This document shows positions 5,818-21,831 of a stretch of DNA of 64,000 nt, one piece after another. How positions within the stretch are numbered: the first letter of the stretch is position 1; each line of letters begins with the position of its first letter. The notes under the pieces are model-generated. The model had not been told where the DNA came from, made no database searches, and worked only from the letters and a program-made list of their open reading frames with translations. Source of the DNA: Deltaproteobacteria bacterium (GTDB lineage: Bacteria > Myxococcota_A > Polyangia > Fen-1088). Both the position numbers and the translations under genes were made by a program. Where the stretch lies: NCBI GenBank assembly GCA_033763315.1, contig JANRKS010000032.1, forward strand, positions 192,001 to 256,000. The letters are read 5' to 3'.

Positions 5818-6047
5818 CTAGAACGAGAGTTAAACGCGGCCGGCGGAAAAACGAGAAAGCTGCAAGCAAACCGAGCCGCCCTCCTCTAGGCCCACCAGCA
5901 CAACCGACCAGATCGCCCCCGTAAGGGGCCCACGAAGGAAAAGACGGATCCCTTTCGGCATAGCACGACCCTCTCCGAGCCGGGAGGCGAATCGCCCAAC
6001 CCCTGAAAAACAGGCGGCCGGCGCGCCACATTCGCTTCCCCTATGTA

Positions 6048-6076
6048 TTGACACATCCGCGCGGTTCCCCTAGGTT
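6048..6076 (+). promoter_or_regulatory. sigma70-type promoter of pal-cpoB
   Basis: TTGACA (6048-6053), 17 bp, TAGGTT (6071-6076), then ATG at 6101. Confidence 0.7.
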
Positions 6077-6100
6077 TGGCCCGTCCCTGAGGTGGGAAAC

Positions 6101-6859
6101 ATGCGAAATTTCACTGCGACGCTGTCACTTGGTTTTCTCACGGTCGCTGCCTGGTTGACCCTGGCGGGCTGCAAGCCCGATTACCCTAGCTGCGAGTCCG
6201 ACAAGGATTGCAAGGAGAGCGAGTTCTGCGTTGAGCGTAAGTGCCAACAGTGCCGCAGCTCGAACGATTGCAAGCCGGGGTTTGAATGTAACGAAGGCAA
6301 GTGTGGCGCCATCGCCAATTACTGCACCGATAAGGCTCAATGCCCCGCTGGCCAAGAGTGCATCGCGAATCGTTGCCGTGCTTGTTCTGATGATGCCGAG
6401 TGTCCCTCGGGTCTGATCTGCCTCTCGGGCCAATGTGGCCCTCCCCAGTGCAAGACGGACGACGACTGTCCGCAAGACAAAGACTGTGTCAAAGGCCGTT
6501 GCCAAACGGTGGCCAGCAAGGCGGCAGGCGGACCTCCTTGTCCGCTTGCGCCCGTGTACTTCGGCTTTGATGACGCTGGGTTATCGAGCGAAGCCAGCAA
6601 CATCTTGGCGCAAAACGCCCAGTGCTTGAAGAAGGCGGATCGCCCTGTGAGCCTGGTGGGTCACGCCGATCCCCGCGGCACCGACGAATACAACTTGGCG
6701 CTCACCGACCGCCGCGCCCGTTCCGTGAAGGAATACCTTGAACGCCTGGGCATCCCTGGTGGCCGCTTGAACCCCCTTCCCCGCGGCTCCATTGATGCCA
6801 CGGGCACCGACGACGCCAGCTGGGCCCGCGATCGCCGCGTTGAGCTTCAGTGGCAATAG
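6101..6859 (+). CDS. pal: Pal/OmpA-C peptidoglycan-associated lipoprotein with five Cys-rich repeats
   Basis: Lipobox LAGC; Pal-type motifs VYFGFD, GHADPRGTDEYNLAL and RRVE; lies directly upstream of cpoB. Confidence 0.8.
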   Translation: MRNFTATLSLGFLTVAAWLTLAGCKPDYPSCESDKDCKESEFCVERKCQQCRSSNDCKPGFECNEGKCGAIANYCTDKAQCPAGQECIANRCRACSDDAECPSGLICLSGQCGPPQCKTDDDCPQDKDCVKGRCQTVASKAAGGPPCPLAPVYFGFDDAGLSSEASNILAQNAQCLKKADRPVSLVGHADPRGTDEYNLALTDRRARSVKEYLERLGIPGGRLNPLPRGSIDATGTDDASWARDRRVELQWQ

Positions 6860-6934
6860 ATTGCCAGTTTGGTCCAGGAAGGGATGGGTAGGGTGACTGT
6901 TTCACCAAGACCACGTTCCGGCAAACTCCGCACA

Positions 6935-7750
6935 ATGGGGCGCCTTCTGTCCACCTGCATGGTGACGGGAAGCGCCCTTGCGCTTTTGTCGGGTTGTGTG
7001 ACCTCGGCCGAAGGCCACGCCATGAAGACAGAGACCGCTCGCCTCAAGGAGCGGCTCGACGCCATGGACAAGCGGTACACCGAGGCCAACCAGGCCATGG
7101 ATCGCATCCGCCAGGTCCTGGACGAGGCCACGGCGTTGCTGGCGCGCAACTCAGCCGATCTGGGCGCACAAGTGGAGCGTCAGGGCCAAGACGTGAACTT
7201 GGCGAAGGGCAAACTGGAAGAGCTCCGCTACCTGATCGAACAAATGCAAAAGCACGCCACCGATGTGCGCGTGGAGGAGCGTTTGGCGCAGCTAGAACAA
7301 AGCCAGCAGAAGATCGTGGACAAAGTGGCGCCCACGATGCCCGAAGACAAAGACGCTTTGTGGACCGAAGCCGTGGCCCGTCTGACCGAAGGCAACCGCA
7401 CCGAGGGCCGGCGATTCCTGCGCGAATTCCTCAAGCGTTTCCCGCAAGAACCCAAGGCACCTGAAGCGTATCTGCTGATTGGCAAATCGTTTGCTGAAGA
7501 GTCAAAGCACACGCAAGCGGCCGCCGAATATCAAAAGATTTTGGATTCATACCCCAAGTCGCCGCAGATCCCCGAAGCGATGTACCAGTTGGGCACCTCG
7601 TTCGTTGAGCTCAAATTCTGCGGTGATGCCGAAGCGATTTTCATGGATCTGCAGAAGCGCTTTAAGAAGTCTCCGCGGGCCGCAGACGCGCGCGCCCAGG
7701 TGAAGGCTGTGAAGCTGTTCGCCAAAGACAAAACGCGCTGCACGAGCTAG
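6935..7750 (+). CDS. cpoB: CpoB/YbgF-like Tol-Pal-associated TPR lipoprotein
   Basis: Lipobox LSGC, coiled coil, TPRs of the FPxxxKAPEAY type; follows pal. Confidence 0.8.
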   Translation: MGRLLSTCMVTGSALALLSGCVTSAEGHAMKTETARLKERLDAMDKRYTEANQAMDRIRQVLDEATALLARNSADLGAQVERQGQDVNLAKGKLEELRYLIEQMQKHATDVRVEERLAQLEQSQQKIVDKVAPTMPEDKDALWTEAVARLTEGNRTEGRRFLREFLKRFPQEPKAPEAYLLIGKSFAEESKHTQAAAEYQKILDSYPKSPQIPEAMYQLGTSFVELKFCGDAEAIFMDLQKRFKKSPRAADARAQVKAVKLFAKDKTRCTS

Positions 7751-7770
7751 CCCGGGCCTGTGACGCAAAA

Positions 7771-7793
7771 GCCGCCGCTGTGTAGGCGGCGGC
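7771..7793. terminator. GC-rich hairpin after cpoB, possible terminator
   Basis: GCCGCCGC-TGTGTAG-GCGGCGGC. The A-tract lies on the left side, so there is no U-tract on the + strand. Confidence 0.4.
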
Positions 7794-7799
7794 GGCGTT

Positions 7800-7843
7800 C
7801 TGTCAAACAGACTTCACCTGACCGTAACAGAACTGTTTCGCGG
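7800..7843 (+). promoter_or_regulatory. Pho-box-like array (four 11-bp direct repeats) upstream of the response regulator
   Basis: CTGTCAAACAG/ACTTCACCTGA/CCGTAACAGAA/CTGTTTCGCGG in exact 11-bp register; resembles the E. coli CTGTCAT-N4 unit. Confidence 0.65.
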
Positions 7844-7943
7844 CCAGCGCAGGAACGCTACCGAACGAACCTAATGTTTCGCCCGAAGCACAAACGGCAT
7901 CTTCCGTTTGCCGCTCGCGTCACAGCTTCGTTTCGAGATTGCC

Positions 7944-8759
7944 ATGGACCTTCCTGCGTCCGCAACACACATGCCTTCAGCAAACCTGAAACCTAACGCG
8001 CGTCTTTCGGGGCGCCGCGTGTTGGTCATTGAAGACGAACCCGACATCCGTGATCTGCTGACCTACAACCTGCAAAGCGCCGGTTATGAGGTCAAATCCG
8101 CTGACAGCGGCGAAGGGGGGCTTGAGCTCTACGAGGCCTTCGATCCGCAAGTCATCTTGCTGGATCTGATGCTCAATGGCCTGCAGGGCACCGAGGTGTG
8201 CCGCCGCATCCGCGCCCAGAAGCAAGAGGCGCAGCCCGCGATCATCATGCTCACCGCGAAAGGTGATGAGATAGACCGGGTGGTGGGCTTTGAGCTTGGC
8301 GCCGATGACTACGTCGTAAAGCCGTTTTCCATGCGTGAGCTCTTGTTGCGCGTGAATGCCATGTTCCGCCCGCGCGGTGCCGGTGGTGCCGCTGCCTCTG
8401 GTGAGACGCCAGCCGTGGCCGACGACGATGGCGCCGCCAAACCACGCCGCCGCTTGGTGGTTGGCAACCTCCAGGTGGATGTGGATGGTCATCACGCGTT
8501 CGTTGATGGCACCGAGATCCACGTCAGCATCTTGGAGATGCGCCTGCTGATCTATTTGATGGAATCCAAGGGCCGGGTGCGTTCGCGCGAAGAGCTGCTG
8601 GGCGACGTGTGGGGCTATAAGCCTGGGGTCTCAACGCGGACCGTGGACACCCACGTCAAACGCCTGCGTGACAAGTTGGATTCGGCTGGCTCGCTTATCG
8701 AGACTGTGCGCGGCATGGGTTACCGCTTTGCGGAAGTCCCCCGAACCGAAACGACTTAG
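7944..8759 (+). CDS. OmpR/PhoB-family response regulator, PhoB-like, no adjacent kinase
   Basis: Intact receiver (VIEDE, LLDLML, LTAK, VKPF) and winged-helix RTVDTHVKRLRDKL. Confidence 0.92.
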   Translation: MDLPASATHMPSANLKPNARLSGRRVLVIEDEPDIRDLLTYNLQSAGYEVKSADSGEGGLELYEAFDPQVILLDLMLNGLQGTEVCRRIRAQKQEAQPAIIMLTAKGDEIDRVVGFELGADDYVVKPFSMRELLLRVNAMFRPRGAGGAAASGETPAVADDDGAAKPRRRLVVGNLQVDVDGHHAFVDGTEIHVSILEMRLLIYLMESKGRVRSREELLGDVWGYKPGVSTRTVDTHVKRLRDKLDSAGSLIETVRGMGYRFAEVPRTETT

Positions 8760-8764
8760 GCGTT

Positions 8765-8818
8765 CGTTCACAGAGCTGTAACATGGTGTTGCAGAACTGA
8801 CACCAAGTCGCGACGAAA
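8765..8818 (+). promoter_or_regulatory. Pho-box-like array upstream of the tonB-exbBD-TBDR operon
   Basis: CGTTCACAGAG/CTGTAACATG/GTGTTGCAGAA/CTGACACCAAG/TCGCGACGAAA with a 10-11 bp period. Confidence 0.62.
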
Positions 8819-8867
8819 AACACGCATCGAGGGCGGTAATACCGGGGCCAGCAAGCGACTCGATGCC

Positions 8868-9614
8868 ATGTTTGAGGATTTCGACAAATCACAAAAGCCA
8901 GCGGAGGGACGGGGACGCCTTTTAGGCTCTTACCTCGTCTCTGCCGGCATCATCGTGGGCGTGGCCGCCACTTTGGCCGCAACCATTGCCACCGCCACCG
9001 TGATCGTTAAGAAGCGGCGCGACGTGGAGGTTTCGTTTGCGGATCTGCCGCCCCCGCCGCCGCCCAAGCCCAAGGTAAAGAAGAAAGCGACGCCTGGGGC
9101 CCGCAAGCTGGCCGTGCGCCAAAAGTTGGCGGCACCGAAGGAAATCCCGGCTGAGCAACCCTCTGAGGCGGAGGGCCAACTGGCGGTGGCTGACGACACG
9201 GGACCCGTGGAAGGTTTCGTCGCGGGCACCGCCGGCGATGGCGATGGCGGCGAGGTGGCAAAGCCCCCCGAAGCCCCGCCACCCCCCGCCCCGCCCGCGC
9301 CCGAAGCCCCGCCCGAAGACCAAGAAGTGGAGCGCATCACGGCGCCGCAGTTCTTGTCTGGTTGCCGCACGCCCGAGATCCCCGACGACATCGTCACCAC
9401 GGCAGCCACCATCCAAATCGAAGTGCGCATGTTGATCGGCCCCGACGGTCGCGTGGCCGACGCCAAGATCATCAAGTCACATCCGCTGATCCCAGACGAC
9501 CTAATTCTTCGCTGCGCACGTGCGCAAGTGTTCGAACCCGCTCACCTCCCCGAAGGGCTGGCGGTTCCCTATCCATTTCGACGGCGATTCACCTTTAAGC
9601 CATCGGGGGCTTAG
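8868..9614 (+). CDS. tonB: TonB-family energy transducer
   Basis: N-terminal TM, Pro-rich linker, C-terminal domain with IGPDGRV and F-x-P-A motifs; precedes exbBD. Confidence 0.8.
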   Translation: MFEDFDKSQKPAEGRGRLLGSYLVSAGIIVGVAATLAATIATATVIVKKRRDVEVSFADLPPPPPPKPKVKKKATPGARKLAVRQKLAAPKEIPAEQPSEAEGQLAVADDTGPVEGFVAGTAGDGDGGEVAKPPEAPPPPAPPAPEAPPEDQEVERITAPQFLSGCRTPEIPDDIVTTAATIQIEVRMLIGPDGRVADAKIIKSHPLIPDDLILRCARAQVFEPAHLPEGLAVPYPFRRRFTFKPSGA

Positions 9615-9645
9615 TGGTGTTGGTGTTTTTTAAGGAGCAAGGTAC

Positions 9646-10407
9646 ATGAACTTCAACGTAATCGAATTGTGGCACGGCATGAATGGCTTGGTCCGGACCG
9701 TTGTGACGGTTCTAACCATCCAAGGTCTCGCAACTTTGGCGGTCTCGGTAGATCGCTTGATGTTGTTGATCATGTCGAACTGGCGCGGGCGCAAATTCGC
9801 ACGCAAAGCGGGCCCCGTGTTGGCGCGCGGCGATCTGCAAGGCGCACTGGTGGTGGCTCGCGAAGACAAGCACAGCCATCTGGCGGCTTTCATTCGCACC
9901 GGCGTTGAAACCTTCATTGCCAAACGCAAAGGCGGGTTGGATCACGCGAAGGCCGCAGAGTTGGCGGCGCGTGCGCTTGAGCGCAAAGCCGACAGCTTGG
10001 GCGATTCGCTCAACAAGGGCATGAGCATCTTGGCCTCCACGGGTTCTACGGCACCGTTTATCGGCCTTTTGGGCACAGTTTTGGGCATCTTGAACGCGTT
10101 CAAGTTGGTGGGCCAAAACGGCTCGGGCGGCATGGGCACAATTGGTGTGGCGATTGCTGAAGCCTTGGTTGTGACGGGTTACGGTTTGATGGTCGCGATT
10201 CCCTCGGTGCTTTTGTTCAACGCGATCTCAACGCGGCTTGGAAAGTACGAGTCGGGCTTGAACCACGCCCGCCAAGAGTTGGTGGATCTGCTTGCCGGCA
10301 GCCCACACGACCTGATCATCGAGCCGGTGATGAAAGACAGCCAATCGGCGCGCACGAGCGGGACCACGAAGTCTGTGTCCCACAACGTGGCGGCGTCGCC
10401 AGCCTAG
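9646..10407 (+). CDS. exbB: MotA/TolQ/ExbB proton channel protein
   Basis: TAPFIGLLGTVLGI and IAEALVVTGYGLMVAIP; SD AAGGAG. Confidence 0.92.
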   Translation: MNFNVIELWHGMNGLVRTVVTVLTIQGLATLAVSVDRLMLLIMSNWRGRKFARKAGPVLARGDLQGALVVAREDKHSHLAAFIRTGVETFIAKRKGGLDHAKAAELAARALERKADSLGDSLNKGMSILASTGSTAPFIGLLGTVLGILNAFKLVGQNGSGGMGTIGVAIAEALVVTGYGLMVAIPSVLLFNAISTRLGKYESGLNHARQELVDLLAGSPHDLIIEPVMKDSQSARTSGTTKSVSHNVAASPA

Positions 10408-10443
10408 TGTCTTCGCTCTTCTATTGTTGAAAGGAACGTTACG

Positions 10444-10890
10444 ATGGCTTGGCTACCACCTTCATCCGTTAAAAAACCAAAACCGCGTCCCGTAATGAAC
10501 GTGACGCCGCTGGTGGACGTTGTGTTGGTGTTGCTGATCATCTTCATGGTGGTCATTCCCGCGATGGACGACAGCTTGAACATCGTGGTGCCAGGCATCG
10601 TGAACGTGGATGAGAAGAAGGAAGATAAGGAAAAGCCCTTCGTGCTTTCGGTCACCGACAGCGGCGAGATGCACCTCGAAGACGAAATTGTGCCGAGCAA
10701 GGATTTGGAAAAATTCTTGCGCGACGCAAGCCGCCGCGAGCCGGGCCGCAAGCTTGTGCTTCGTGGTGACAAGTCCGTTCCTTATGGCCTCATGAGGCAG
10801 ATCTACCGGTCGGTGCAGGGCGTGGGATTTCCAGGCGTATCTTTGCGAGTGAGCCCACGCAAGGGTGAAGAAGTTCAAGCTCAAAACTAG
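10444..10890 (+). CDS. exbD: ExbD/TolR family protein
   Basis: MNVTPLVDVVLVLLIIFMV and LRGD motifs. Confidence 0.92.
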   Translation: MAWLPPSSVKKPKPRPVMNVTPLVDVVLVLLIIFMVVIPAMDDSLNIVVPGIVNVDEKKEDKEKPFVLSVTDSGEMHLEDEIVPSKDLEKFLRDASRREPGRKLVLRGDKSVPYGLMRQIYRSVQGVGFPGVSLRVSPRKGEEVQAQN

Positions 10891-10905
10891 TTAGGAACAA
10901 GCACC

Positions 10906-11349
10906 ATGGGAATGGACGTAGAAGTTGGCGATAAAGGCGGCAAAAAAGGCCGCGCCAAACACCGCCCCGAAATGAACGTGACACCCCTTGTAGACGTGGT
11001 GTTGGTTCTGTTGATCATTTTCATGGTGCTGACCGCGGCGCTCAACGAGCATTTTTGGTTGAACGTGCCCGAGAAAAACAAAGACGACGTTGTCGAGCAA
11101 GATGACGATGCTGAGCAACCGATCGTTGTGTCGGTGAACGCGCAAGGCCGCATTCAAATCAACCGCGATGTTTATCCCGATAACGAATTCGCTGCGCGCC
11201 TGCGCCGCATGCTGGTTGCCCGCGGCGATCGCCGCGTTTACTTCGACGCTCAAGACCGGGTTCCCTTTGCCCGCGCCGTTCAAGTTCTGGACTTGGCGCG
11301 CGGCGGGGGCGCCGCCCATATCGCGGTTGTGACGGAGAAGCTCGAATAA
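10906..11349 (+). CDS. exbD: ExbD/TolR family protein, second copy
   Basis: EMNVTPLVDVVLVLLIIFMV motif. Confidence 0.92.
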   Translation: MGMDVEVGDKGGKKGRAKHRPEMNVTPLVDVVLVLLIIFMVLTAALNEHFWLNVPEKNKDDVVEQDDDAEQPIVVSVNAQGRIQINRDVYPDNEFAARLRRMLVARGDRRVYFDAQDRVPFARAVQVLDLARGGGAAHIAVVTEKLE

Positions 11350-11393
11350 ACCATCCGCCCGCGCCCCCCACCTAACCCAACACCACCCATCCA

Positions 11394-14387
11394 ATGATTC
11401 GAAGACTATTGCCCTTCGTGGGCGGAGCCCTGCCCATAACCGTGTGTGCGGTGCTCGCACTTCCCGCTTTCGCGCAAGATGAGCCGCTGCCTGATGTGCA
11501 GGCCGACGCTGGCGTCGTTGATGGCGGTGACGTTGATGGTGGCGACCTTGATGGCGGCGTGGTGGCCACGCCTGTGCCGGTGGTGGCCCCCGTTGTGGCC
11601 GCGCCTGCGCCTGTGGTGCCGCAGAAGCAAGTGCTTGAGCCCGGGGCCGACACGGACACGGGCGTGAAGGGCCACGTCTACGACGCGAAAACAAAGCAGC
11701 CGATGGCGGTGGCGCCGGTGCTGGTGAAAGGCGGCGGCAAAACGCGCACCACGATGACGGATGAGCAGGGCGGTTACCGCCTGTATCTGCCGCCCGGCAC
11801 TTACAGCGTGATGTCGTATTACGATCTCTATCACGGCGCGCGCATCAAAGGCGCCAAGGTCAACCGCGGCAAGCTGCTGAACTTGAACTTGATGTTGTTC
11901 CCTCTCGATGAAAACGAGGAGGTATCGATTCAAGAATTCGAGATCGCGTATAGGGCGGATACGACAAGCGCGGCGGCACAAGATCAATTGAGGTTGGCGA
12001 GCTCAAGCATCGGCGAAGGCTTCGGCGCCAAGCAAATGTCGCAAGTGGGCGCAAGCGATGCAGGTGGTGCGGCGGCGAGGGTGGTGGGCGTGCAGGTGGA
12101 AGACAACCAGCTTGTTGTGCGCGGGTTGGGTGGAAGGTACACGCGCGTGCTTCTCAACGGCGTGCCTGTGCCGAGTACGGATCCGGATTTGCCAGGGGCT
12201 GACCTGGATCTGTTTCCGACGCACGTCATCGACAGCTTGAACATATCGAAGACCTTCCTGCCGAACAGCCCGGCAGATTTCGCTGGCGGCTTGATGGAGA
12301 TCAAAAGCGTCACTTTTCCCCGGAAATTCACGTTCGAGATTGGTCTTTCGACCGGCGCCAACAGTCAATCCACGTTTCGCGACAACTTGACCTACAAAGG
12401 CGGGAAGTACGATTTCCTTGGTTACGATGACGGGAGTCGCAGCCTGCCCTCGGCGATTCCGCCAGCGGAGCCAGTTACCATTTCTCGCACGGGTAGGTAT
12501 CAGTCCTTTGACTCGATCTACGAGGCGACTCGTGCCTTCTCGAACCGTTGGCAGTACAGCTATACAACGGGGCTTCCAAAAATTGGAATTTCGTCAACTC
12601 TCGGTGCGTCTAGAAAGTTCGGAGATCGCAGCCGTGTTGGGTACCTTGTAACTGCAAGCTACGACTATGAGATGCTTCGGAAGATCGGTATCGCACGTCC
12701 TCGTCCGGTCTCGACGTCCGATGGCTCGCTGATGGTTCTCAACGACTACAAGCTTGAATCGGGGACCGAAGAGGTTGCGATGAATGCCTTTGGGACGGCA
12801 AGCGTTGACCTAGGACCTGATCATTCGTTGACACTCGTTTCGCTTTTTAATCGTAGCGCGTCCGACGAAACACAGTTGCAACGAGGTATCAACGGCGAGC
12901 TGGGCAACGACGCCCTATTTGAGAAATGGCAGTTACAGTTTCTGGCACGCTCGCTATGGTTCAACCAGTTCTTCGGCGACCACCGCAACCTCGCGGGCAC
13001 TCGCCTAAGGTTGAGATGGACAGCTTTTCAGTCCAGCGGTCGTCGTGAAGAGCCAGATCGGCGTACCATCGCGTACGGCCCTGAAGGCGGCTCCTCCCGC
13101 TGGCTCACGCGCTCCGGATCTGGCGAAAGGTTCTACAGCAACCTTGAACAAAACGACATCGGGTTGACGACTTCCTTGCGTTTTCCCCTTTGGTCACAGG
13201 CGTGGGGAACCTTAGGCGTGTGGGGCCAGCGGACGGGCCGAGACTTTGACAACCGCCGCTTCCGTATGCTTCGCGCGACAGAGAACGGCGTACCTGCTGA
13301 AGCGTTCTCGGCACCTATCGAAGAGATATTCGGTCCCACAGGTGTTGGAAGGCTCTCGCGCATCGGTGAGTTTACGCGTGATGACGACAGCTACCGCGCC
13401 AAGCAGGTTTTATACGCGGCCTACGGTATGGCTGAGACGCCGCTCATCGGGAGGTTGTCACTTGCAGGAGGTGTGAGGACCGAGGTGTTTCAACAGGAGG
13501 TTGAGTCCTTCAACGTATTCAAAGCCCAAGCCGCGGCGATGCCGGGCGATCAGATGCGGACGGATCGAACGGACACCGATTATCTGCCGGGCGCTAACCT
13601 AAAGTACGAGCTTACGAAGGACATGCTCCTGAGAGCTGCCTACGGTGTAACAGTTTCTAGACCGCAGGCGCGTGAGTTGGCACCTTTCCAATATTACGAT
13701 TTCGTTCGCGACAGAAACATCGTCGGGAATCCAAACCTGAGTCGCACCTTGATTCAGAACGCTGACTTGCGCTGGGAGTGGTTTATTGGAGAAGGCGAGG
13801 TCCTCGCCTTGTCGACCTTCTATAAGAAGTTCGACAAGCCCATCGAGCTGGTCATCAGCAATCCCAACTACGATAGCCAGTTCAGAAACGCCAAAGGTGC
13901 AACCAACATCGGCGTTGAAGGCGAGGCTCGACTAAGCCTCAAGCGGCTGGCGAACGCGCTCAAGCGATTCTCCTTGGATGGCAACTTCGCTTTGGTGCAA
14001 TCCAAGATCGAGATCAATCCCGAAGATGCGGGGGCGGTTGCCGCGAATAGGCCCTTGTACGGTCAGGCGCCCTACGTCATCAACTTGGCGCTTCGTTTTC
14101 ACGAACCTGACACACAGTTCAGTGCTTCTGTCGTCTACAACGTGGTGGGTCCTCGGTTGTCGGATGTTGGTGTTCGCTCCGGTGACCTGATCCTTCCGAA
14201 CATTGACGAACAAGCGTTTCACTCACTTGATCTCATATCCAGCATCGGCGTGGGAAAGCACTTAAAGATCAAGGCTCGAGCTCGAAATCTTTTGTTCCAG
14301 ACGATTCGCCTAAAACAAGGCAGTTTTCTCACGCAGCGAATTGAACCCGGACTCACGGTCAGCGTAGGACTTTCTTACGAGTACTAA
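11394..14387 (+). CDS. TonB-dependent receptor with N-terminal carboxypeptidase-regulatory-like domain
   Basis: Signal peptide; plug motifs VRGLGGRY, LNGV and LDLFP; barrel motifs GNPNL and NADLRWEWF; ends VGLSYEY. Confidence 0.92.
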   Translation: MIRRLLPFVGGALPITVCAVLALPAFAQDEPLPDVQADAGVVDGGDVDGGDLDGGVVATPVPVVAPVVAAPAPVVPQKQVLEPGADTDTGVKGHVYDAKTKQPMAVAPVLVKGGGKTRTTMTDEQGGYRLYLPPGTYSVMSYYDLYHGARIKGAKVNRGKLLNLNLMLFPLDENEEVSIQEFEIAYRADTTSAAAQDQLRLASSSIGEGFGAKQMSQVGASDAGGAAARVVGVQVEDNQLVVRGLGGRYTRVLLNGVPVPSTDPDLPGADLDLFPTHVIDSLNISKTFLPNSPADFAGGLMEIKSVTFPRKFTFEIGLSTGANSQSTFRDNLTYKGGKYDFLGYDDGSRSLPSAIPPAEPVTISRTGRYQSFDSIYEATRAFSNRWQYSYTTGLPKIGISSTLGASRKFGDRSRVGYLVTASYDYEMLRKIGIARPRPVSTSDGSLMVLNDYKLESGTEEVAMNAFGTASVDLGPDHSLTLVSLFNRSASDETQLQRGINGELGNDALFEKWQLQFLARSLWFNQFFGDHRNLAGTRLRLRWTAFQSSGRREEPDRRTIAYGPEGGSSRWLTRSGSGERFYSNLEQNDIGLTTSLRFPLWSQAWGTLGVWGQRTGRDFDNRRFRMLRATENGVPAEAFSAPIEEIFGPTGVGRLSRIGEFTRDDDSYRAKQVLYAAYGMAETPLIGRLSLAGGVRTEVFQQEVESFNVFKAQAAAMPGDQMRTDRTDTDYLPGANLKYELTKDMLLRAAYGVTVSRPQARELAPFQYYDFVRDRNIVGNPNLSRTLIQNADLRWEWFIGEGEVLALSTFYKKFDKPIELVISNPNYDSQFRNAKGATNIGVEGEARLSLKRLANALKRFSLDGNFALVQSKIEINPEDAGAVAANRPLYGQAPYVINLALRFHEPDTQFSASVVYNVVGPRLSDVGVRSGDLILPNIDEQAFHSLDLISSIGVGKHLKIKARARNLLFQTIRLKQGSFLTQRIEPGLTVSVGLSYEY

Positions 14388-14440
14388 CTGATCTGCAAGA
14401 TTGAAGAAACCAAGGAAGATAGTTTAAGGAGACTTTTAGA

Positions 14441-15904
14441 ATGGCGAAAAAATTGCTCGCGAAATATTTTGTTGCTGGCGCGTTGGTCGCCGGCCTGGCA
14501 GCAGGCTGTGACGACGACGAGCCTGAAGTTGTGACGGATGCAGCAGCCACAGACGGCGGTGGCGGCAGCAACGCTGACGGTGGTGTGGTGCCAGGCACCG
14601 ACTCAGGTTCAGACGTTGCCAGTCCTGCATGCCCTGCTGAAACCGCTGTTACCGGCGACATCACAGCTAACACAACGTGGGCTTGCCCTTCATACTCCCT
14701 CAAGAAACTGATCTACGTTACAAACGGCGCGACGCTGACCATCAAGGAAGGCGTCAAGATCACCGCCGACACCACCGTGTCGAATCCTGTGCCCGGTCTG
14801 ATCGTCAGCCGCGGGTCCAAGCTCATGGCAAAGGGCACCGCCGCGAAGCCGATCTTGTTCACATCAGAGAACCCAGTCGGTGCGCGCGCCGCGGGCAACA
14901 TCGCAGGCTTGGCCCTGTTGGGCAGCGCGACGATCAATCAAGGTACCTGCAGCACTGGTGGAGCGGCCGGCTGTGCGGCGCCTGGCTTCCTTCAGAACAA
15001 CTTCGAGGGGATCAATGGTGAACCTCGGGCGATCTATGGCGGAACTGACGACGCCAGCAGCTGCGGCGAGCTTGAATACGTGCGCATCGAATTCGCTGGT
15101 GCTGAGCTTCAGCCTGGCAAGGAACTCAATGGCCTCTCCGTTGCTGGCTGTGGTTCGGGCACCAAGCTCAGCTACATCCAAGTCCACCGTGGCAAGGATG
15201 ACGGCGTTGAGTTCTTCGGCGGCACGGCCAGCATCGATCACGTGGTTATCACGGGCGAGGAAGATGACGCTCTTGACTGGGACTTGGGATGGCGCGGCCG
15301 CGCGCAGTTCGTAGTGATTCAGAAGTGGGTAGGTTTCGGCGACAACGGCTTCGAATCGAACAATGCCACGGACTTTGGTGAAACCTTGGCTCCTCGCTCG
15401 GCACCTCAGCTTTACAACGTCACTCTGGTCGGAACGCCGACCACACGTGCGATGCTTCTGCGTCAGGGTACACGGGGCATCATGAAGAACTTCATCGTTC
15501 AAGGTTTCGGAAAGAACGTTGACGTCCAGTGGAAGGACGCAGCAAACGTTCCGACCACGGAATGGCCCGCCCAATTGAGTGTCGAGAACAGCGTGTTCTT
15601 CGGCAACGTAGACTGGGCTCCAGAAACCAGTGCTGACGCCATGGCCGCCGACTACAACGACGACTTTGGCTTCGATGAGAAGGCGGCTTTTTCGGACGCG
15701 GCTCGCAAGAATCAGTTTGCGGTTGATCCGCAACTCACCGCTGTAGTGGAGACTGCACCGAACTTCACTCCGAAGAACCCCGCCTTGGCAAACCAAGCTG
15801 TGCCTCCAGCGGGATTCGATGCAACAGCAAACTACGCTGGCGCCATCGCTCCTAACGCAGCGACGAGCTGGCTTGACGGCTGGACTGCGTTCCCGAAGAA
15901 CTAA
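14441..15904 (+). CDS. Parallel beta-helix lipoprotein, partner of the TBDR
   Basis: Lipobox AAGC; YVRIEFAG...NGLSVAGCGSGT...IQVH...DDGVEFFGG...EDDALDWDLGWRG; ends SWLDGWTAF; SD AAGGAG. Confidence 0.78.
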   Translation: MAKKLLAKYFVAGALVAGLAAGCDDDEPEVVTDAAATDGGGGSNADGGVVPGTDSGSDVASPACPAETAVTGDITANTTWACPSYSLKKLIYVTNGATLTIKEGVKITADTTVSNPVPGLIVSRGSKLMAKGTAAKPILFTSENPVGARAAGNIAGLALLGSATINQGTCSTGGAAGCAAPGFLQNNFEGINGEPRAIYGGTDDASSCGELEYVRIEFAGAELQPGKELNGLSVAGCGSGTKLSYIQVHRGKDDGVEFFGGTASIDHVVITGEEDDALDWDLGWRGRAQFVVIQKWVGFGDNGFESNNATDFGETLAPRSAPQLYNVTLVGTPTTRAMLLRQGTRGIMKNFIVQGFGKNVDVQWKDAANVPTTEWPAQLSVENSVFFGNVDWAPETSADAMAADYNDDFGFDEKAAFSDAARKNQFAVDPQLTAVVETAPNFTPKNPALANQAVPPAGFDATANYAGAIAPNAATSWLDGWTAFPKN

Positions 15905-15920
15905 ACTTCGCCATAGACCA

Positions 15921-15958
15921 AAAACGGCTCAGTCGGCACACGCCGGCTGAGCCGTTTT
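15921..15958. terminator. Intrinsic, probably bidirectional, terminator closing the TonB operon
   Basis: AAAACGGCTCAGTCGGC-ACAC-GCCGGCTGAGCCGTTTT, a 17-bp stem with one G-U pair. Confidence 0.85.
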
Positions 15959-16243
15959 GCATTTGGAGCCCAGCAGGGCGCCCACTCTCCCACGTCAGAG
16001 CGCATGAAGACCTGAGAATCATCGCAGATTTGGAGTTGTGCAGTGTCGACAACGACCGTCTTGCACAGCTTTGCACATTCAAGGTTTGAGTACCTTTGTT
16101 CGGCCGTTCGTGCGTAAATTTTTGCCTGAAAACCTGGCAAAGTCTTTCCTGCCAGACGACTCAGTACCTCTGTTACTTCAACTCTCACGAGGCGCGTGAC
16201 GGTCACGTCGCCTGATCAACTTTAGAAGAACGGAGAACGAGAA

Positions 16244-16939
16244 ATGAAACTCAGATTCGGCATTATTCAACTGCTTCTAGCTATTGCCGTGATTGGCCAA
16301 AGTGAATTTGCATTCGCCCAGCAAGCATACCCACCTGGTGGCGCGTTCTCCGCCTCTGGTGTCACGGTGGCTATCGGCAAGATTTATCAAAGGGCAGGAT
16401 CCGTGCATGTTGGCACCGGCGTTCTTTACGTTTCGAATGCCAACCCCAGCAATTGCGTGTATGTAAGCGGCGCCGGGGCTGTTTACGGGTCTTCGTACAA
16501 TGACGTAATCTATGTGGACACGGGATCAGGCATCGACCTCAATGGCAATTGTCCGTACTTTAGCGGTGGCCGACCACAACTCTCTGTCCAGTTGCAAATT
16601 TACGGCCAGAGCGGTAACGACGACATCTACGGTGGCCTCGATGCCGGGAGAATAGAAGGAGGCAATGGCGACGACCGAATCCAGACGATGGGCACCGGTT
16701 ACGTATACATCGACGGCGGAAGCGGCAACGACCGAATCCGCTCGTTAGGAGTGTGCACAAATGCGGTTTGGAATTGCCCCCAACTTTGGGGCTCGGCTGA
16801 CAATGATTGCCTTGAGGCTCGCTCTAATGCGTATGTCAACGGCAATGGCGGCAGTAACATCTGCTACCTGGAGCCAGGCGCAACGATCCAATCGTACAAT
16901 TGCACTTCATGGGGGCCGGAAGCCATTTGTGAGTGGTAG
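16244..16939 (+). CDS. Secreted protein with RTX/hemolysin-type Ca-binding repeats
   Basis: Sec signal ending AFA-Q; repeats GQSGNDDI, GGNGDDRI, GGSGNDRI, GSADNDCL; SD GGAG. Confidence 0.75.
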   Translation: MKLRFGIIQLLLAIAVIGQSEFAFAQQAYPPGGAFSASGVTVAIGKIYQRAGSVHVGTGVLYVSNANPSNCVYVSGAGAVYGSSYNDVIYVDTGSGIDLNGNCPYFSGGRPQLSVQLQIYGQSGNDDIYGGLDAGRIEGGNGDDRIQTMGTGYVYIDGGSGNDRIRSLGVCTNAVWNCPQLWGSADNDCLEARSNAYVNGNGGSNICYLEPGATIQSYNCTSWGPEAICEW

Positions 16940-17216
16940 CCCCAGCGCATGGGTTTGAGGCCGCGATTTTGAGCGGCGGCATTGGCCAACGCGAGCGGTA
17001 ACCATCGCCATGATGGGCGGTCGCCAAGTCATCGCGGGTGTTGGGCTGGCGGCGTGCAGGCGAAATGGATGTCAACAGTCGCCGTGCATGCCGCCGTTAT
17101 GTCTTTCAATGTTGTGCTTAGCCGTTTGACTGGCCTGAGAGGCGCTTGACGGGAGGGCTACTTCACTACGACGTTAAGCATGAACTCCCCCAGGGTCTGT
17201 ACATTGGTAGTCTGAC

Positions 17217-17828
17217 TCAACATTCTCCCGGTCCTATGCGGAACGTGGCCAGCATCTGACACAGCGTTCGATAGGGGAGCCCGGCCATTTCGGCAGCTTG
17301 CCGTTTCGTTTTGGATTTGGCCAAAAGGGCTTTCAAATAAGCCTCCCTAAACTGTGACTCCGCTACGAACAGGGGCTTACCAGCTGAACTGCTCGCATCG
17401 GCTCTCCCGAAATGAGCCTCTAGTTCTTTTTGGGCGATTGCCTGAAGGCGCCTGCCCAAGCACTTCCTTATCAGCGCATCAACGAACCCCTCCATCGCTA
17501 GAGAATCGTACGCGACGACGTTAGAGAAACCGACTGAGCGCAGAGCGAGTTCAACAGAAGGCGCCTGGCCGTTACATATGAGTGCAAGCTCTGGTTCGCC
17601 AAGAGCACACAGACTGCCGACCAAGCGGCCGAGTTGCGAAAGGTCTTGCTCATCACGCATGAACGCAACCACTGCCTCGACGGGTGATGATGCCATTGAA
17701 GGCGGCAAGTCGCTGAAGTGTGCGTGACTTACGAAATGCCCCTTCATTTTTAGCGACCACAGGCGTTCTAGATCTTCCGATGCATTCGAGACCAGCAGGA
17801 CGGTTCCGAGGTCGATTCGCCTCCTCAT
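17217..17828 (-). CDS. Pseudo-receiver plus Fis-type HTH regulator
   Basis: C-terminal FREAYLKALL...AAEMAGLPYRTL resembles the NtrC/Fis HTH. N-terminal receiver-like beta/alpha pattern lacks the acidic residues. Start placed at MRRRID, uncertain. Confidence 0.6.
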   Translation of the reverse strand: MRRRIDLGTVLLVSNASEDLERLWSLKMKGHFVSHAHFSDLPPSMASSPVEAVVAFMRDEQDLSQLGRLVGSLCALGEPELALICNGQAPSVELALRSVGFSNVVAYDSLAMEGFVDALIRKCLGRRLQAIAQKELEAHFGRADASSSAGKPLFVAESQFREAYLKALLAKSKTKRQAAEMAGLPYRTLCQMLATFRIGPGEC

Positions 17829-18246
17829 GTGAGAGCGTTCATCCTCGCACCCCGTGCCCCATGAATTGACTCGATGCGCCATAGTCGTCCGTTGGCCACC
17901 GTAGCCTATCGCGCCAGTGTTCATGGTCAAGTCACATCTTGGTTCAGTGAGGCTATTCCTAGGTCCATTTGAACTAAATACGGCGGTCTGGGGTCTGCGT
18001 CGTGGTCCGAATGTGCTCACGATCGAACTCCAGCCCTTAGACTGCTCTCGTCCCCTCGCAGCCGAGCCTCAACGGCGAGAGGTTGGCTTGAATAAGCACA
18101 CGCCACTGTCCGCGCCCTCGCCATGCCGGAGCCACCTAGCCGTGTCCTTGCGTGCATCACGGAGCTGCGGCCAAGACATTCAACAAACTGAACGCAGATT
18201 GGTCACCAGGCGGAACCAAAAGGCGAGAGCCGCCGTACGCCAGCTG

Positions 18247-21200
18247 TCACGGGATTAAGACATCCACGTTCAACGGGCCCTGGGCATACACGCAGATCAG
18301 ATCAAGCTTGTTGTCGTTGTTGTTCCACAAATCTCGCGCGCGATATCGCACCTGAGTCAGGGAGCGGCTTTGTTGAAAGTCCGCCGCAACTGCTGATGTG
18401 ATGTCCAAGGTGGTCATGAAACCGGTTCCGCTTGTGCTGACAATCAAGTAGTGGTTTGGTGAGGCCCCCAAGGTTGACAGCGCAGAGGCGTTGAAGGCGC
18501 TCGAATCAAGAGAATCGAATCGAACGTGCTCCAAGATGAGAGGACCCAAGGAGTAGAACGACCCGTCCATTCCGTCCCCAAGCTTTACCCCAATCCGTGC
18601 TGCCACTACGGCCTTGGTGTTCGCTGGGATCGCAGAAAGGCTAAATGAAAGAAACCCTCGCGAGGATTGGCCATTTATTGAATCACCCATACACAGAAAG
18701 CCCTCATAGTCTGAATTGGTGCTGGGCGCGTAATTGCCTGGTCCGAGGTACCAAACGTAATTGGTGAGTCCAGCATTGACCGAGAGTGTCAGCGTCGTCT
18801 GCCTTAAGCACTCGCCGTTCCAACACACGCGACCACCCGTGCAATCGCCCGACACCGAACACGTTGAGCGGCAACTGACGGTGTTTTGACAGGTGAGGTT
18901 GCCGCTGCAGGCTTGCCCCGTCGGCGAGGTGCATGCCCCAGCGCCGTTGCATGTGGACGCTGGAGTCAATACAGCGTTTGCACAGGTAATGCCCGCGCAC
19001 GATCCATCGTTCATGCCGCTCGCCACGGGCGTGCAAGTACCGCTACCACACGCCTCGCAAGCCCCGCTGCACGCGCTGTTGCAACACACACCATCGGGGC
19101 AGAATCCTGACGCGCACTCCGCCGGTCCCCCGCATGCGACGCCCTGCTTCTTCCTGCATTGGCCACTTACGCAGGTTTTGTTGCTATCGCTGCAGGGGTT
19201 TTGTGCGCTGCAGCTGCTGAGGCAAGCGCCGCCGCTGCATGAGAATTCTCCACAGCTGACCGGAGATGGCATGGAACACACTCTGGCGCCGTTGCATGTT
19301 GAGGCAGGCGTGGCGTTGTTGCCCGAGCAGGAGGCGCCTGCACACGAGCCGTCGTTCACTCCGTTCGGAATGGGAGCACAAACGCCGTTGGCGGCTCCCG
19401 TGTCTGTGTTGCGACACGACTCGCATGCGCCGGTGCATGCGCTGTTGCAACAGAATCCGTCCGCACATTTATCTGATCCGCAATCGCCGTTTCCGCCGCA
19501 GGCTTGGCCATTGGGGGCCCCACACTGCTTTGTCCGCGAGTTGCATTTGGTGCCACCGCGGCAGTCAGCGTCTGTCGCGCAGCTGCCCTTACAGGCCGAG
19601 CCGCTACACACAAGGCTTCCCGAGCAAGTGATGGCTGCTGGTGCCTTGCACGTTCCCGCGCCATCACATGTCGACGATCCGATCTCCTGAGACGAATCAG
19701 TCGAGCATTTTGCACCTTCGCAAATAACGCCCGCGGCGTGAACCGCGCACTGGCCGCTGCCGTTGCATGTGCCCGTAGTCTTGCATGTGCTGCTGGCAGT
19801 CGCGTCACACTGATTCAGTGGATCCTGGCCGCCCGGAATGTTCTCGCATGTACCCTCTTTTCCACTCACAGCGCATGACTTGCAAGTTCCAGTGCAAGCG
19901 CTCGCGCAACACACGCCCTGCTCGCAGAACCCCGAAAGGCATTGCGACTTATTGCCGCAGGCTTGCCCGTCGCGCCGCTTCCCGCACAGGCCGTTGATGC
20001 AGGTGTTCGGCGCCACGCATTGGTCGTCGCGGGAGCACGTTGTGCCGCATGCATTTGCGCCGCATGTAAATGGGGCGCAACCGGCAGGTTGCTTCGTGAC
20101 CGCGCACGTGCCAAGGCCATCACATTGCTTTGCGAACGATTCTGTGTTCGAGGCTGCATCGCAACTTCGGCCCTGGCATTCAGTTCCCTGTGGCCACTTT
20201 TGGCAGCCCTTTTGGCCATCACACTTGCCGTTGTTGCCGCATGTGCTTGAGGCACTTGAGCCACACTTGCCACGCGGATCGTCCACATTCGCCGCAACAT
20301 CCGTGCAAGTGCCTTTGGCCGTTGCCAGGGCGCAGAATTGACAAGTGCTATTGCAAGACGAGTTGCAACACACGCCATCCACGCATTGACCCGAAGTGCA
20401 TTGAGATGCCGTGTTGCAGACCGCGTCGTTGGGCAAAAGTCCACAGCTTCCATTTACGCAACTGGTGCCGCCGGCACATTCATCGTTGGAAGTGCACTTT
20501 GTAAGGCAGGCGTTGCCTGCGCATACAAACGGCGCACACGCCACGGGCCTTCCCGCAACGCACGAGCCGCTGCCATCGCATTCACTGGGTGGGACGCCAT
20601 CGCTGCCGCTACATTTGGCGGGCGAACAGACAGAACCTTTGGCGAACAGAGAGCACCCACCGTTGCCATCGCACTTGCCCGTTTGTCCGCAGACCCCCAC
20701 GTCGCTGGCTTTACAAACCTTGCGGTCGTCATTGGCGCCGGCTGCGAGATTCTTGCACTCGCCCATGAAACCCACCAAGTTGCATGAACGGCAAGCGCCT
20801 TCGCAGGCCGTGCTACAACAAACGCCATCGGCACAGTTTCCTGATTCGCACTCAGGGCCCTTGGCGCAAACCGCGCCGAGTGGCTTTTTGCCGCAACTTT
20901 TCTTGTTCGTGTCTGGATCAAGCGCGCAGGCTTTGCCCGACTCACACATCGTGCTGTCTTCGCACTCGGCGTAGCAAGTCACGGAGGCTACATTGCAAGC
21001 AAAAGGCGCACACACGAGATCGTTGCTCGCGTCACAGGCGCCCGCTTTACAAACCTTGCGCCCGCGCGTGCCTGCGCCTTCGCACTGGCCCGGGGCACAT
21101 ACAGAGCCATCGGGCCACTTGCGACACGCGCCTTCGCCATTGCACTTGCCGTCAAAGCCACACGTAGAGGCCGCCTCCGTTTGGCACATCTTGCCTGCCG

Positions 21201-21831
21201 CAGGTGGATCACCATTAGCGACGGGTGAGCATTGGCCGCTGCTGCCCTGGAGGTTACACGCCTCACAAGAGCCTTTGCATGCACTGTTGCAGCACACGCC
21301 GTCGGCGCAGAACCCACTCATGCATTCGGCGCCCGTTGAACAGGCAACCGCGTTTTCCTTCGAGCCTCGCTCGACAGGAATTTCGATGCCGCCGTCACCA
21401 TCAGGGGGCACACCCGCTTCTTGACCGGGAATAGGCGGGACGACGATGCCACCCTTTGCCGTAAGTGGAAATGTAACCGCTGTGCATCCTGAAATAAGTG
21501 GCACGGATGGCAGTACGTTTGGATCGCCCAAGGCCGAGCCCATCTTTGTCGGCGTTGCAGTCACCCTGAACGTTTGCCCTTCTGCGTAGCTGGGCATGGC
21601 AACTTCGTAAGTGAGCTGCCCGGGGCAACGGAGGTTGCTGCTTGAAAAGCTTGCCTCCTGCCCGTCATTTCGCAACAACTGAAAGCCCAGCGCGTCGGCC
21701 TCGCTCAGATCGCTTTCACACGTGAATTTCAGAAACAGTGTGTTCGCATTGCATGGAAGCACCTGCTTGTCTTTGCTGCACGCCGCGAGTGCCACAAGCA
21801 AAGACAGCATCACCAATACGTTTCGTTTCAT
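18247..21831 (-). CDS. Giant Cys-rich repeat lipoprotein with Cys-poor C-terminal domain
   Basis: Lipobox LAAC; six repeats with core like CxSGxCxDGVCCxxxCxGxCxxC; C-terminal ~180 aa containing RGFLSFSLSAIP, DNRLRE-like by recall. Confidence 0.85.
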   Translation of the reverse strand: MKRNVLVMLSLLVALAACSKDKQVLPCNANTLFLKFTCESDLSEADALGFQLLRNDGQEASFSSSNLRCPGQLTYEVAMPSYAEGQTFRVTATPTKMGSALGDPNVLPSVPLISGCTAVTFPLTAKGGIVVPPIPGQEAGVPPDGDGGIEIPVERGSKENAVACSTGAECMSGFCADGVCCNSACKGSCEACNLQGSSGQCSPVANGDPPAAGKMCQTEAASTCGFDGKCNGEGACRKWPDGSVCAPGQCEGAGTRGRKVCKAGACDASNDLVCAPFACNVASVTCYAECEDSTMCESGKACALDPDTNKKSCGKKPLGAVCAKGPECESGNCADGVCCSTACEGACRSCNLVGFMGECKNLAAGANDDRKVCKASDVGVCGQTGKCDGNGGCSLFAKGSVCSPAKCSGSDGVPPSECDGSGSCVAGRPVACAPFVCAGNACLTKCTSNDECAGGTSCVNGSCGLLPNDAVCNTASQCTSGQCVDGVCCNSSCNSTCQFCALATAKGTCTDVAANVDDPRGKCGSSASSTCGNNGKCDGQKGCQKWPQGTECQGRSCDAASNTESFAKQCDGLGTCAVTKQPAGCAPFTCGANACGTTCSRDDQCVAPNTCINGLCGKRRDGQACGNKSQCLSGFCEQGVCCASACTGTCKSCAVSGKEGTCENIPGGQDPLNQCDATASSTCKTTGTCNGSGQCAVHAAGVICEGAKCSTDSSQEIGSSTCDGAGTCKAPAAITCSGSLVCSGSACKGSCATDADCRGGTKCNSRTKQCGAPNGQACGGNGDCGSDKCADGFCCNSACTGACESCRNTDTGAANGVCAPIPNGVNDGSCAGASCSGNNATPASTCNGARVCSMPSPVSCGEFSCSGGACLSSCSAQNPCSDSNKTCVSGQCRKKQGVACGGPAECASGFCPDGVCCNSACSGACEACGSGTCTPVASGMNDGSCAGITCANAVLTPASTCNGAGACTSPTGQACSGNLTCQNTVSCRSTCSVSGDCTGGRVCWNGECLRQTTLTLSVNAGLTNYVWYLGPGNYAPSTNSDYEGFLCMGDSINGQSSRGFLSFSLSAIPANTKAVVAARIGVKLGDGMDGSFYSLGPLILEHVRFDSLDSSAFNASALSTLGASPNHYLIVSTSGTGFMTTLDITSAVAADFQQSRSLTQVRYRARDLWNNNDNKLDLICVYAQGPLNVDVLIP

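Follow-up and report, generated by a model that had tools for sequence, protein, structure and literature searches.

A probably Pho-regulated locus for a TonB-dependent transporter and a beta-helix lipoprotein of the ElpS/Pus4 type in a myxobacterium

What does a bacterium import through a TonB-dependent transporter (TBDT) whose partner is a beta-helix lipoprotein in place of a SusD, and is the pair under phosphate control? This question is raised by a locus in a 64,000-nt stretch of DNA, hereafter the window (∼60% G+C; contig JANRKS010000032.1, positions 192,001–256,000, of assembly GCA_033763315.1; Polyangia, Fen-1088). Here, a PhoB-like response regulator, tonB-exbB-exbD-exbD, a TBDT and the lipoprotein are encoded one after the other on the plus strand (Table 1). 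An initial annotation, made from the sequence alone, had reported this gene order, which we recovered in full, and had interpreted it as a self-contained phosphate-starvation module with its own Ton motor. At a rough probability of 60%, we regard the locus as one of the ElpS/Pus4 type that belongs to the Pho regulon and serves scavenging at the outer membrane, with a lipoprotein that would hold a metal-bridged phosphorylated compound over an Arg-rich TBDT. The receptor–lipoprotein pair as such is already in print, where it was proposed to have a non-SusD lid, and is not a new system; new here are the myxobacterial layout and a third array of Pho-box-like repeats inside the receptor gene.

Homologous loci and described relatives

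We compared the locus with 76 GTDB loci around lipoprotein homologues, taken from the best 80 of 642 stretches, a sample that is biased to close matches and contains several congeners. A TBDT of the same receptor family as that of the window was found beside the lipoprotein in 59 of the 76 loci, and in 40 of the 45 whose flanks each extend for 6 kb or more. A PhoB-like regulator was encoded in 24 loci (six regulator-like open reading frames (ORFs) were excluded by hand as non-PhoB or partial), pst/phoU genes in 12, ppk/ppx in 7 and pit/DUF47 in 3. At least one of the phoB, pst, ppk/ppx or pit genes was present in 31 of the 76 loci, spread over at least five phyla, as a raw count. PhoB was the best model for 25 of the 27 neighbouring regulators scanned, eight of which exceeded the curated cut-off. 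Similar pairs near pho genes in other phyla had been mentioned in the initial annotation, and the survey provides good comparative evidence for a link of the module to phosphate starvation.

The Caulobacter lipoprotein ElpS (CC0170/CCNA_00169; ∼50 kDa) is likewise encoded beside a non-SusC TBDT (CC0171/CCNA_00170). ElpS has been reported as a phosphate-starvation-induced, palmitoylated and surface-exposed lipoprotein next to TBDT and type II secretion genes (PMC2996285), with a PhoB-dependent promoter (PMC5172544). The window differs in that the TBDT gene precedes the lipoprotein gene, the Ton motor and the regulator lie upstream, and type II secretion genes are absent. Sphingomonas, Indioceanicola, Euryhalocaulis and Kordiimonas, by contrast, encode homologues of the window lipoprotein in precisely the gene order of elpS (lipoprotein-TBDT-gspC-D-E). 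The window protein is 33–37% identical to proteins in this layout and to TBDT-adjacent lipoproteins of Bacteroides and Parabacteroides, an indirect comparison; neither ElpS nor BT4056 by name was among the 120 homologues listed by our searches, which were seeded from Sphingomonas and Bacteroides finegoldii. A B. finegoldii homologue is split into two ORFs (L085:7866–9119), and full-length 417-aa forms exist.

Pus4 (PUSIV) of Flavobacterium johnsoniae also consists of a TBDT (Fjoh_0545) followed by a pectin-lyase-fold lipoprotein (Fjoh_0546, FII), clustered with phoB, and the domains of its receptor, PF07715, PF13715 and PF14905, all match the window TBDT as well. Both genes lie in the phoBR cluster and were reported with log2 fold changes of 8.0 and 9.9; in the same source, the lipoproteins FI, FII and FIII are described as related to ElpS and as part of PUSIII/IV, FII being the one in the phoBR cluster, and FI makes up 18.7% of the exoproteome (PMC8115612). 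Whereas PUSIV contains phoR and further genes, the window has no kinase and brings its own tonB-exbB-exbD-exbD. Four loci from Flavobacteriales and Bacteroidales in our sample share the phoB-TBDT-lipoprotein layout (L065, L068, L074 and L076).

A third described pair, BT4055/BT4056 of Bacteroides thetaiotaomicron, was proposed to carry a non-SusD lid of the pectin lyase superfamily, predicted to lie on the TBDT's outer face (bioRxiv 10.1101/2023.03.17.533168). According to that study, which links BT4056 to ElpS and Fjoh_0546, lipoproteins of this type adjoin a TBDT in 621 genera (394 of Bacteroidota, 171 of Proteobacteria); Myxococcota, regulation by boxes and conserved residues, in contrast, do not feature in it. 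On synteny, size, predicted fold and receptor domains, the window pair appears to be of the ElpS/Pus4/BT4056 type, and its lipoprotein has both the signal and the ∼45–55 kDa size of these proteins. The idea of a new system is thereby superseded. In agreement with the initial annotation, no assigned substrate was found in the literature consulted, nor was a myxobacterial description of the pair; this literature was mostly open access, with the M. xanthus Pho papers outside it.

Phosphate-induced TBDTs paired with surface lipoproteins also include PusCD1 and PusCD2, which are reported to import inositol phosphate and glycerophosphoinositol (bioRxiv 10.64898/2026.09.03.749221). The window pair may work like them in importing an organophosphate, but the PusCD pairs are true SusC/SusD systems with extracytoplasmic function (ECF) sigma factors and linked phosphatases, and the same source treats the Pus3/Pus4 lipoproteins as distinct and their function as hard to predict. 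Closer to the window in phylogeny, three clusters that combine Ton and TBDT genes have been reported in M. xanthus, and both Oar and MXAN_0272–0276 resemble the window in having a four-gene tonB-exbB-exbD-exbD motor beside a TBDT (PMC6434023). MXAN_0272–0276 is a candidate orthologue of the window locus, since the gene order fits and Corallococcus (L019) and Archangium (L038) carry the module. Deletion of MXAN_0272 reportedly caused no developmental defect (PMC6434023), and MXAN_0273–0276 have been tentatively assigned to iron uptake (PMC3222651, PMC10196010, PMC9548883, PMC3986340).

The regulator and the Pho-box-like arrays

The regulator is a PhoB-like protein, judged by its sequence. Its best model is PhoB (TIGR02154), at 211.7 bits against a curated cut-off of 296.2. 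All neighbouring regulators of the other myxobacterial loci remain below this cut-off as well (218–242 bits), and the window protein was accordingly filed as no more than PhoB-like. Aligned with PhoB proteins above the cut-off, it keeps the acidic pocket, the phospho-Asp, the Thr and the Lys intact, and its recognition helix is PhoB-like and conserved except for Thr in place of Val and Lys in place of Arg. The earlier PhoB-like assignment therefore stands as to best model, phosphorylation site and helix, and falls short as to the curated cut-off. A Pfam scan of 46 hand-picked window ORFs (20 + 26) detected no histidine kinase, confirming that the regulator has no kinase next to it, and no pst or pho gene, phosphatase or inner-membrane transporter. 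Moreover, only three of the nine loci with an exbB-exbD-exbD motor also have a phoB-like gene, compared with six of another nine with a different, DUF3450-containing motor. For these reasons, the description as self-contained was overstated. M. xanthus, too, has a phosphate regulator described as an orphan, PhoP4 (PMC4415409).

Pho boxes are made of two 11-nt units with seven conserved positions, CTGTCAT in E. coli (PMC4415409). Array 1, upstream of the regulator gene, contains four units in register. Their joint match to CTGTCAC is 20/28, the highest count anywhere on the two window strands; for CTGTCAT, the count is 17/28, which four window positions attain. To escape circularity, the motif was learned from other genomes only. 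Gibbs sampling of the 160 nt upstream of tonB in eight homologous loci other than the window returned a motif with a period of 11 and the core GTCAC (6.27 bits versus 4.72 ± 0.2, reached by none of 12 shuffled sets). Periods of 10 and 12 remained at chance, and periods of 9 and 13 exceeded the shuffles more weakly (5.07 and 5.54), probably due to the near-palindromic half-site.

We then built a scoring matrix from 26 promoters, none of them from the window, and used 30 shuffles of the window as the null. Array 1 was the top three-unit match in the window (19.1 bits versus a shuffle maximum of 17.1), in support of the array noted initially; scored as four units, it gave 14.3 bits, within the shuffle range (mean 11.9, maximum 17.5). 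The array proposed before tonB, array 2, has a 10-bp step after its second unit, and its best two-unit score (13.1 bits, third in the window) does not leave the range of the shuffles (mean maximum 15.3). What supports this array is that tonB is preceded by the motif in other genomes as well. Tandem 11-nt units exceed chance in array 1 when taken as three, and array 2 is backed by conservation only. An RNA structure at array 2 was considered and rejected (z −0.4). Another two-unit match, also 13.1 bits and within chance, lies upstream of a GGDEF gene (27758–27779).

Applied to 1.27 Mb of related loci, the matrix found 26 four-unit matches of ≥18 bits. Sites on which it had not been trained included those before the lipoprotein gene in seven loci and before pstS in one, and the three-unit list added a second pstS promoter and one DUF47-pit pair. 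In these related loci, the motif is thus found at phosphate genes, the kind of match that the initial annotation had named as support for a Pho regulon. Of 23 homologous regions, 11 had 10 nt as the best spacer between the last half-site and a −10-like hexamer. In each of the two window promoters, a TAAT hexamer lies 72 nt past the first unit, which fits the 10-nt spacer by way of a weak last unit; that of array 1 (7855–7861) matches at just 3/7 positions, making the promoter geometry tentative. A scan for sigma-70 consensus promoters returned none across 6500–17500, as expected if the boxes stand in for the −35 element, and Rfam had no matches across 6000–18000. Taken together, the sequence data indicate that the window locus is probably under Pho regulation.

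The initial annotation had listed these two arrays and overlooked a third, which lies inside the 3′ end of the TBDT coding sequence, ∼330 nt before the lipoprotein start. It is the top four-unit site of the entire window (22.9 bits versus a shuffle maximum of 17.5), and its score was not reached anywhere in 2000 synonymous shuffles of the TBDT gene. None of the nine matches of equal strength in related loci lies inside a called gene, except at its start. Among the 41 rows in which the TBDT is followed by the lipoprotein, the window included, only one other has an array at the same place and in the same register, namely the closest relative (L009), whose array is weaker (three units, 11.8 bits); an intragenic array is therefore no general feature. 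A promoter of its own, with boxes, is common for the lipoprotein gene in related loci that have an intergenic gap, and separate regulation has been reported for elpS and its receptor (PMC2996285). The intragenic array is not followed by a −10 hexamer at the favoured distance of 10 nt, and PhoB sites within genes are reported to be often inert in E. coli (PMC10294691). We give roughly even odds to a separate drive of the lipoprotein gene by this array.

The lipoprotein, its transporter and the limits of the locus

The lipoprotein has 487 aa, with a lipobox read by eye as LAAG-C23 and an Asp after the Cys; retention in the inner membrane of M. xanthus has been associated with Lys at +2 (PMC3222651). 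PF28492.1 (Beta_helix_4, its Atlas name; 30/30 feature matches, 0.98) matches it and all of the 120 homologues listed, whereas an older Pfam release gave no match, and no SusD match was returned by Pfam. The family is matched by 5,860 representatives at 50% identity, and the closest relatives are from Polyangia, Sandaracinaceae and other Myxococcota. The predicted structure is a right-handed parallel beta-helix (predicted local distance difference test (pLDDT) 92.4, predicted template modelling score (pTM) 0.89), in agreement with the fold named in the initial annotation. Its neighbours in fold space are lyases, epimerases, depolymerases and tailspikes (Z 17–22, identity 6–12%), none of which stands out: 8ja4 (Z 22.2, root-mean-square deviation (rmsd) 3.3, 270 residues aligned) is followed by similar rows, and 1ru4, taken as the PL9-type comparison (Z 20.3, rmsd 3.6, 296 aligned, 12% identity), ties with others. 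Protein and profile searches of PDB sequences at E 10 gave no matches, and Foldseek had none at E 0.001.

Five acids, D253, D254, D275, D279 and E305, never vary across 109 beta-helix domains from related loci; E257 and D276 are conserved in 108, and Arg341 is kept in 99. The acidic DDG/EDD motifs singled out initially are thus present and conserved throughout. These seven acids sit at the starts or ends of strands in successive coils of the model, and probably share one face of the helix as a result. Residues 153, 154 and 307 are lineage-specific departures from near-invariant Asp, Trp and Asp that are common to an 82% relative (P0002).

Many homologues are tandem repeats or end in type IX secretion tails, the latter in 15 of the 28 long homologues scanned. 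Together with the loci that have no TBDT, these tails imply that the beta-helix domain often works without a transporter. Close homologues (37–40%) in Marinobacter, Alcanivorax, Methylophaga and similar bacteria are extended at the N terminus, and the flanking DNA examined encodes no TBDT (L012, L014, L016, L018, L020, L021, L025 and L001). In P0223, the domain is fused to a Ser/Thr protein kinase, and it is fused to or near one at L026:7604–9112 and L037:5944–8094, hinting at use as a sensor domain. Directly 3′ of the lipoprotein gene, 11 loci from Poribacteria, Acidobacteria, Gemmatimonadota and others encode a conserved protein of ∼170 aa, absent from the window, that had no Pfam or NCBIfam match and may be a third component (L022:11115–11633, L023, L028, L030, L032, L036, L050, L057, L058, L059 and L067). 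A survey of 10 of the 23 plasmid records with a lipoprotein match revealed an Alteromonas island (L004:4121–20454, NZ_OX359244.1; near-identical to L056 and L062) with phoB-phoR-pstS, a three-domain lipoprotein, a TBDT and a Ton motor; by its gene content, it is a more self-contained, mobile version of the module. Among the same plasmid records, those of Sphingomonas and Indioceanicola have the order lipoprotein-TBDT-gspC-D-E.

The TBDT is modelled with an N-terminal carboxypeptidase-regulatory-like domain, a plug and a barrel of 22 long strands, and has many conserved Arg and Lys residues. It reached 15.6 bits with the SusC model TIGR04056 (cut-off 368) and is accordingly classed as non-SusC, which sets the pair apart from SusC/SusD systems. 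A fold search returned generic TBDTs only and no hint of a substrate; the nearest solved structures are metal-chelate receptors at 9–14% identity, which is uninformative since such receptors dominate the library. The adjoining tonB-exbB-exbD-exbD genes agree with the earlier notion of a dedicated motor. TonB_C scores 21.7 bits in the proline-rich TonB-like protein, below its 24.6 cut-off, and the ExbB/ExbD proteins score higher on TolQ/TolR models (107 versus 91 bits for ExbB, 79–82 versus 54–57 for the ExbDs).

For complex prediction, both chains were trimmed to fit (TBDT barrel residues 312–997, lipoprotein residues 62–375). The score was 0.56, compared with 0.00 for the best of three controls; the runs agreed on at least 63% of contacts, and partner pLDDT was at least 81. 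Of 157 solved pairs, 116 attain the mark used for this score, as do 2 of 215 mismatched ones, and values up to 0.60 comprise only 18 solved pairs plus both mismatches, so the model lends weak support to docking of the lipoprotein on the TBDT. With adjacency in 59 of the 76 loci, it favours the proposed partnership in place of a SusD. A correlation of receptor and lipoprotein distances (r 0.84) was set aside as evidence of pairing because shared ancestry gives the same.

Genes for pal and cpoB lie upstream of the module, separated from it by a hairpin (z −4.2, 0/200 shuffles) with a U-tract on the minus strand and a weak one on the plus strand. The strong terminator described at the other end was confirmed in part: the stem has 17 bp and is exceptionally stable (−35 kcal/mol, z −6.8, 0/200 shuffles), but its U-tract is short, and the hairpin was missing from the output of a consensus terminator scan. 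Beyond it, after an A+T-richer gap of ∼280 nt, follows a small secreted-looking protein with RTX calcium-binding repeats (16244–16939) that is not part of the module. Further downstream are a 1194-aa cysteine-rich, repeat-containing lipoprotein-like ORF without a Pfam match, adjoining a TPR-PEGA gene (18247–21831), and a nucleotidyltransferase and HepT-like gene pair (24199–25261), presumably a toxin–antitoxin system of the MntA/HepT type.

Table 1. Coordinates of the features of the locus within the window
Feature	Position	Strand	Basis or remark
GC-rich hairpin, probable terminator between pal-cpoB and module	7771..7796	+	Downstream of cpoB, just upstream of array 1
Pho-box-like array 1, four units of 11-bp period before regulator gene	7800..7843	+	Motif scoring
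Weak in-register sixth unit (7855–7861), 10-nt spacer and −10-like hexamer (7872–7877)	7855..7877	+	Tentative
Orphan OmpR/PhoB-family response regulator	7944..8759 (longest ORF from 7908)	+	Start codon uncertain
Pho-box-like array 2 before tonB	8765..8818	+	Two in-register units, 10-bp step, two to three more
TonB-like protein	8868..9614	+	N-terminal membrane anchor, proline-rich linker, weak TonB_C
ExbB/TolQ-family proton channel	9646..10407	+	Profile match
ExbD/TolR-family protein 1	10444..10890	+	Profile match
ExbD/TolR-family protein 2	10906..11349	+	Profile match
TBDT, non-SusC	11394..14387	+	Profile matches, model, conservation
Third Pho-box-like array, candidate internal promoter element	14071..14114	+	Within 3′ end of TBDT gene
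PF28492 (Beta_helix_4) lipoprotein, Cys23, ElpS/FII/BT4056-type	14441..15904	+	Profile, fold, conservation
Terminal hairpin	15921..15958	+	17-bp stem, 5′ A-tract, short 3′ U-tract

A proposed function and its alternatives

When phosphate is limiting, the orphan regulator would be phosphorylated by a kinase of PhoR type whose gene lies elsewhere. As the motif and the homologues suggest, this regulator would bind the 11-bp arrays in place of a −35 element and activate its own gene and the tonB-exbB-exbD-exbD-TBDT-lipoprotein unit, and the intragenic array may further boost the lipoprotein. The lipoprotein would be located on the outer face of the cell, as shown for ElpS, and would dock on the TBDT as an open lid, a position weakly predicted by the complex model. 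Its invariant carboxylate cluster would hold a divalent metal, probably Ca2+, and grip a phosphorylated organic molecule together with Arg341. Our best guess for this cargo is a compound of phosphodiester type, for example a nucleotide or oligonucleotide, a lipid head group, or a fragment of teichoic acid or polyphosphate. The Arg-rich TBDT and the adjacent Ton motor would import it to the periplasm, and unlinked phosphatases would free the phosphate. We infer binding rather than catalysis by the lipoprotein, as we do its metal, cargo and surface location.

Several observations weigh against this proposal. The regulator does not reach the curated PhoB cut-off, its runner-up models (MtrA, 194 bits; YycF, 184 bits) come near the score for PhoB, and in a regulator tree it fell into no supported group. 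Array 2, taken alone, is within chance. Membership with ElpS, Fjoh_0546 and BT4056 was assigned from indirect evidence, namely synteny, size, predicted fold and receptor domains. There is no TBDT in 17 of the 76 loci (5 of the 45 well-flanked ones), and the window lipoprotein departs at two near-invariant positions, with Ile154 for Trp and Asn307 for Asp. As for the published pairs, the receptor gene of Caulobacter was reported as constitutive and deletion of elpS as leaving phosphatase activity unchanged (PMC2996285), and for BT4055/BT4056, few contacts were predicted with confidence and 519 fitness assays yielded no phenotype (bioRxiv 10.1101/2023.03.17.533168).

The main rival to a binding function retains Pho regulation and makes the lipoprotein an enzyme, a metal-dependent lyase or phosphodiesterase that acts on a phosphate polymer (teichoic acid, polyphosphate, nucleic acid or a phosphorylated glycan) and feeds fragments to the TBDT. 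Seven invariant acids on stacked coils do resemble an active site and may be likened to the calcium ladder of PL9 lyases, the nearest folds are mostly carboxylate-using enzymes, and secreted, tandem-duplicated and TBDT-free forms are common. ElpS is reported to be shed by proteolysis, and its overexpression raised phosphatase activity in the supernatant; ElpS itself, however, appears to be no phosphatase in this account, since refolded and immunoprecipitated protein was inactive on p-nitrophenyl phosphate, a single substrate (PMC2996285). Furthermore, none of the fold matches is prominent, a structural calcium site can also account for invariant acids, and the kinase fusion P0223 fits a ligand-binding domain. 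On balance, we consider an enzyme unlikely, if less so than any other alternative. Pho control could also serve to acquire inorganic phosphate bound to minerals or metals, such as Ca- or Fe-phosphate, or the metal that PhoX/PhoD-type phosphatases need as cofactor, with the acid cluster as chelator. This would suit a conserved site that is rich in acids and not in bases, the metal-chelate receptors among the TBDT's fold neighbours, uninformative as they are, and the reported action of ElpS as an activator of another phosphatase, but it leaves the conserved Arg341 and the many Arg and Lys residues of the TBDT unaccounted for. Since, in addition, iron depletion is reported not to have induced ElpS (PMC2996285) and the Flavobacterium loci were repressed under iron limitation (PMC8115612), we judge a metal target to be improbable.

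The two remaining alternatives abandon phosphate uptake altogether. The position of pal and cpoB directly upstream, the higher TolQ/TolR scores of the motor proteins and the sub-threshold regulator would all be expected of an envelope-stress locus, in which pal-cpoB and TolA/Q/R-like genes answer to a non-Pho OmpR-family regulator that also binds tandem repeats. This is very improbable, given that pal-cpoB was beside the motor in none of the eight homologous four-gene-motor loci with upstream DNA, that the scanned window ORFs include no tolB and hence do not show the tolQ-tolR-tolA-tolB-pal-cpoB linkage, that a hairpin separates pal-cpoB from the module, and that the motif accompanies pstS and pit promoters. 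TBDTs as a rule serve import, and the pair spans phyla with different motors, both of which speak against a role in export or signalling, where the TBDT would secrete or surface a protein, perhaps the lipoprotein itself, without importing a nutrient. Myxococcus Oar, with its tonB-exbB-exbD-exbD motor, does export a protease (PMC6434023), and ElpS reportedly does not need the type II system to get to the surface, but deletion of cc0171 did not stop ElpS production (PMC2996285), and we give this possibility as little credence as envelope stress.

Among the readings, we thus favour Pho-regulated scavenging by a lipoprotein that binds its cargo. A bolder extension, which we consider rather doubtful, is that PF28492 proteins are unrecognised metal-dependent beta-helix enzymes or binders for phosphodiester polymers, that with a TBDT they constitute a near-universal Gram-negative route for polymeric phosphorus, and that the intragenic Pho array lets this predatory lineage over-produce and shed the lipoprotein independently of the TBDT. 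Few envelope systems have been reported with as strong a phosphate induction as the ElpS/Pus4 pair, which is also very widespread. The window locus extends the known system and sharpens a test of it, contributing a myxobacterial form with its own motor, a short set of invariant residues to mutate and a candidate regulatory site within a gene.

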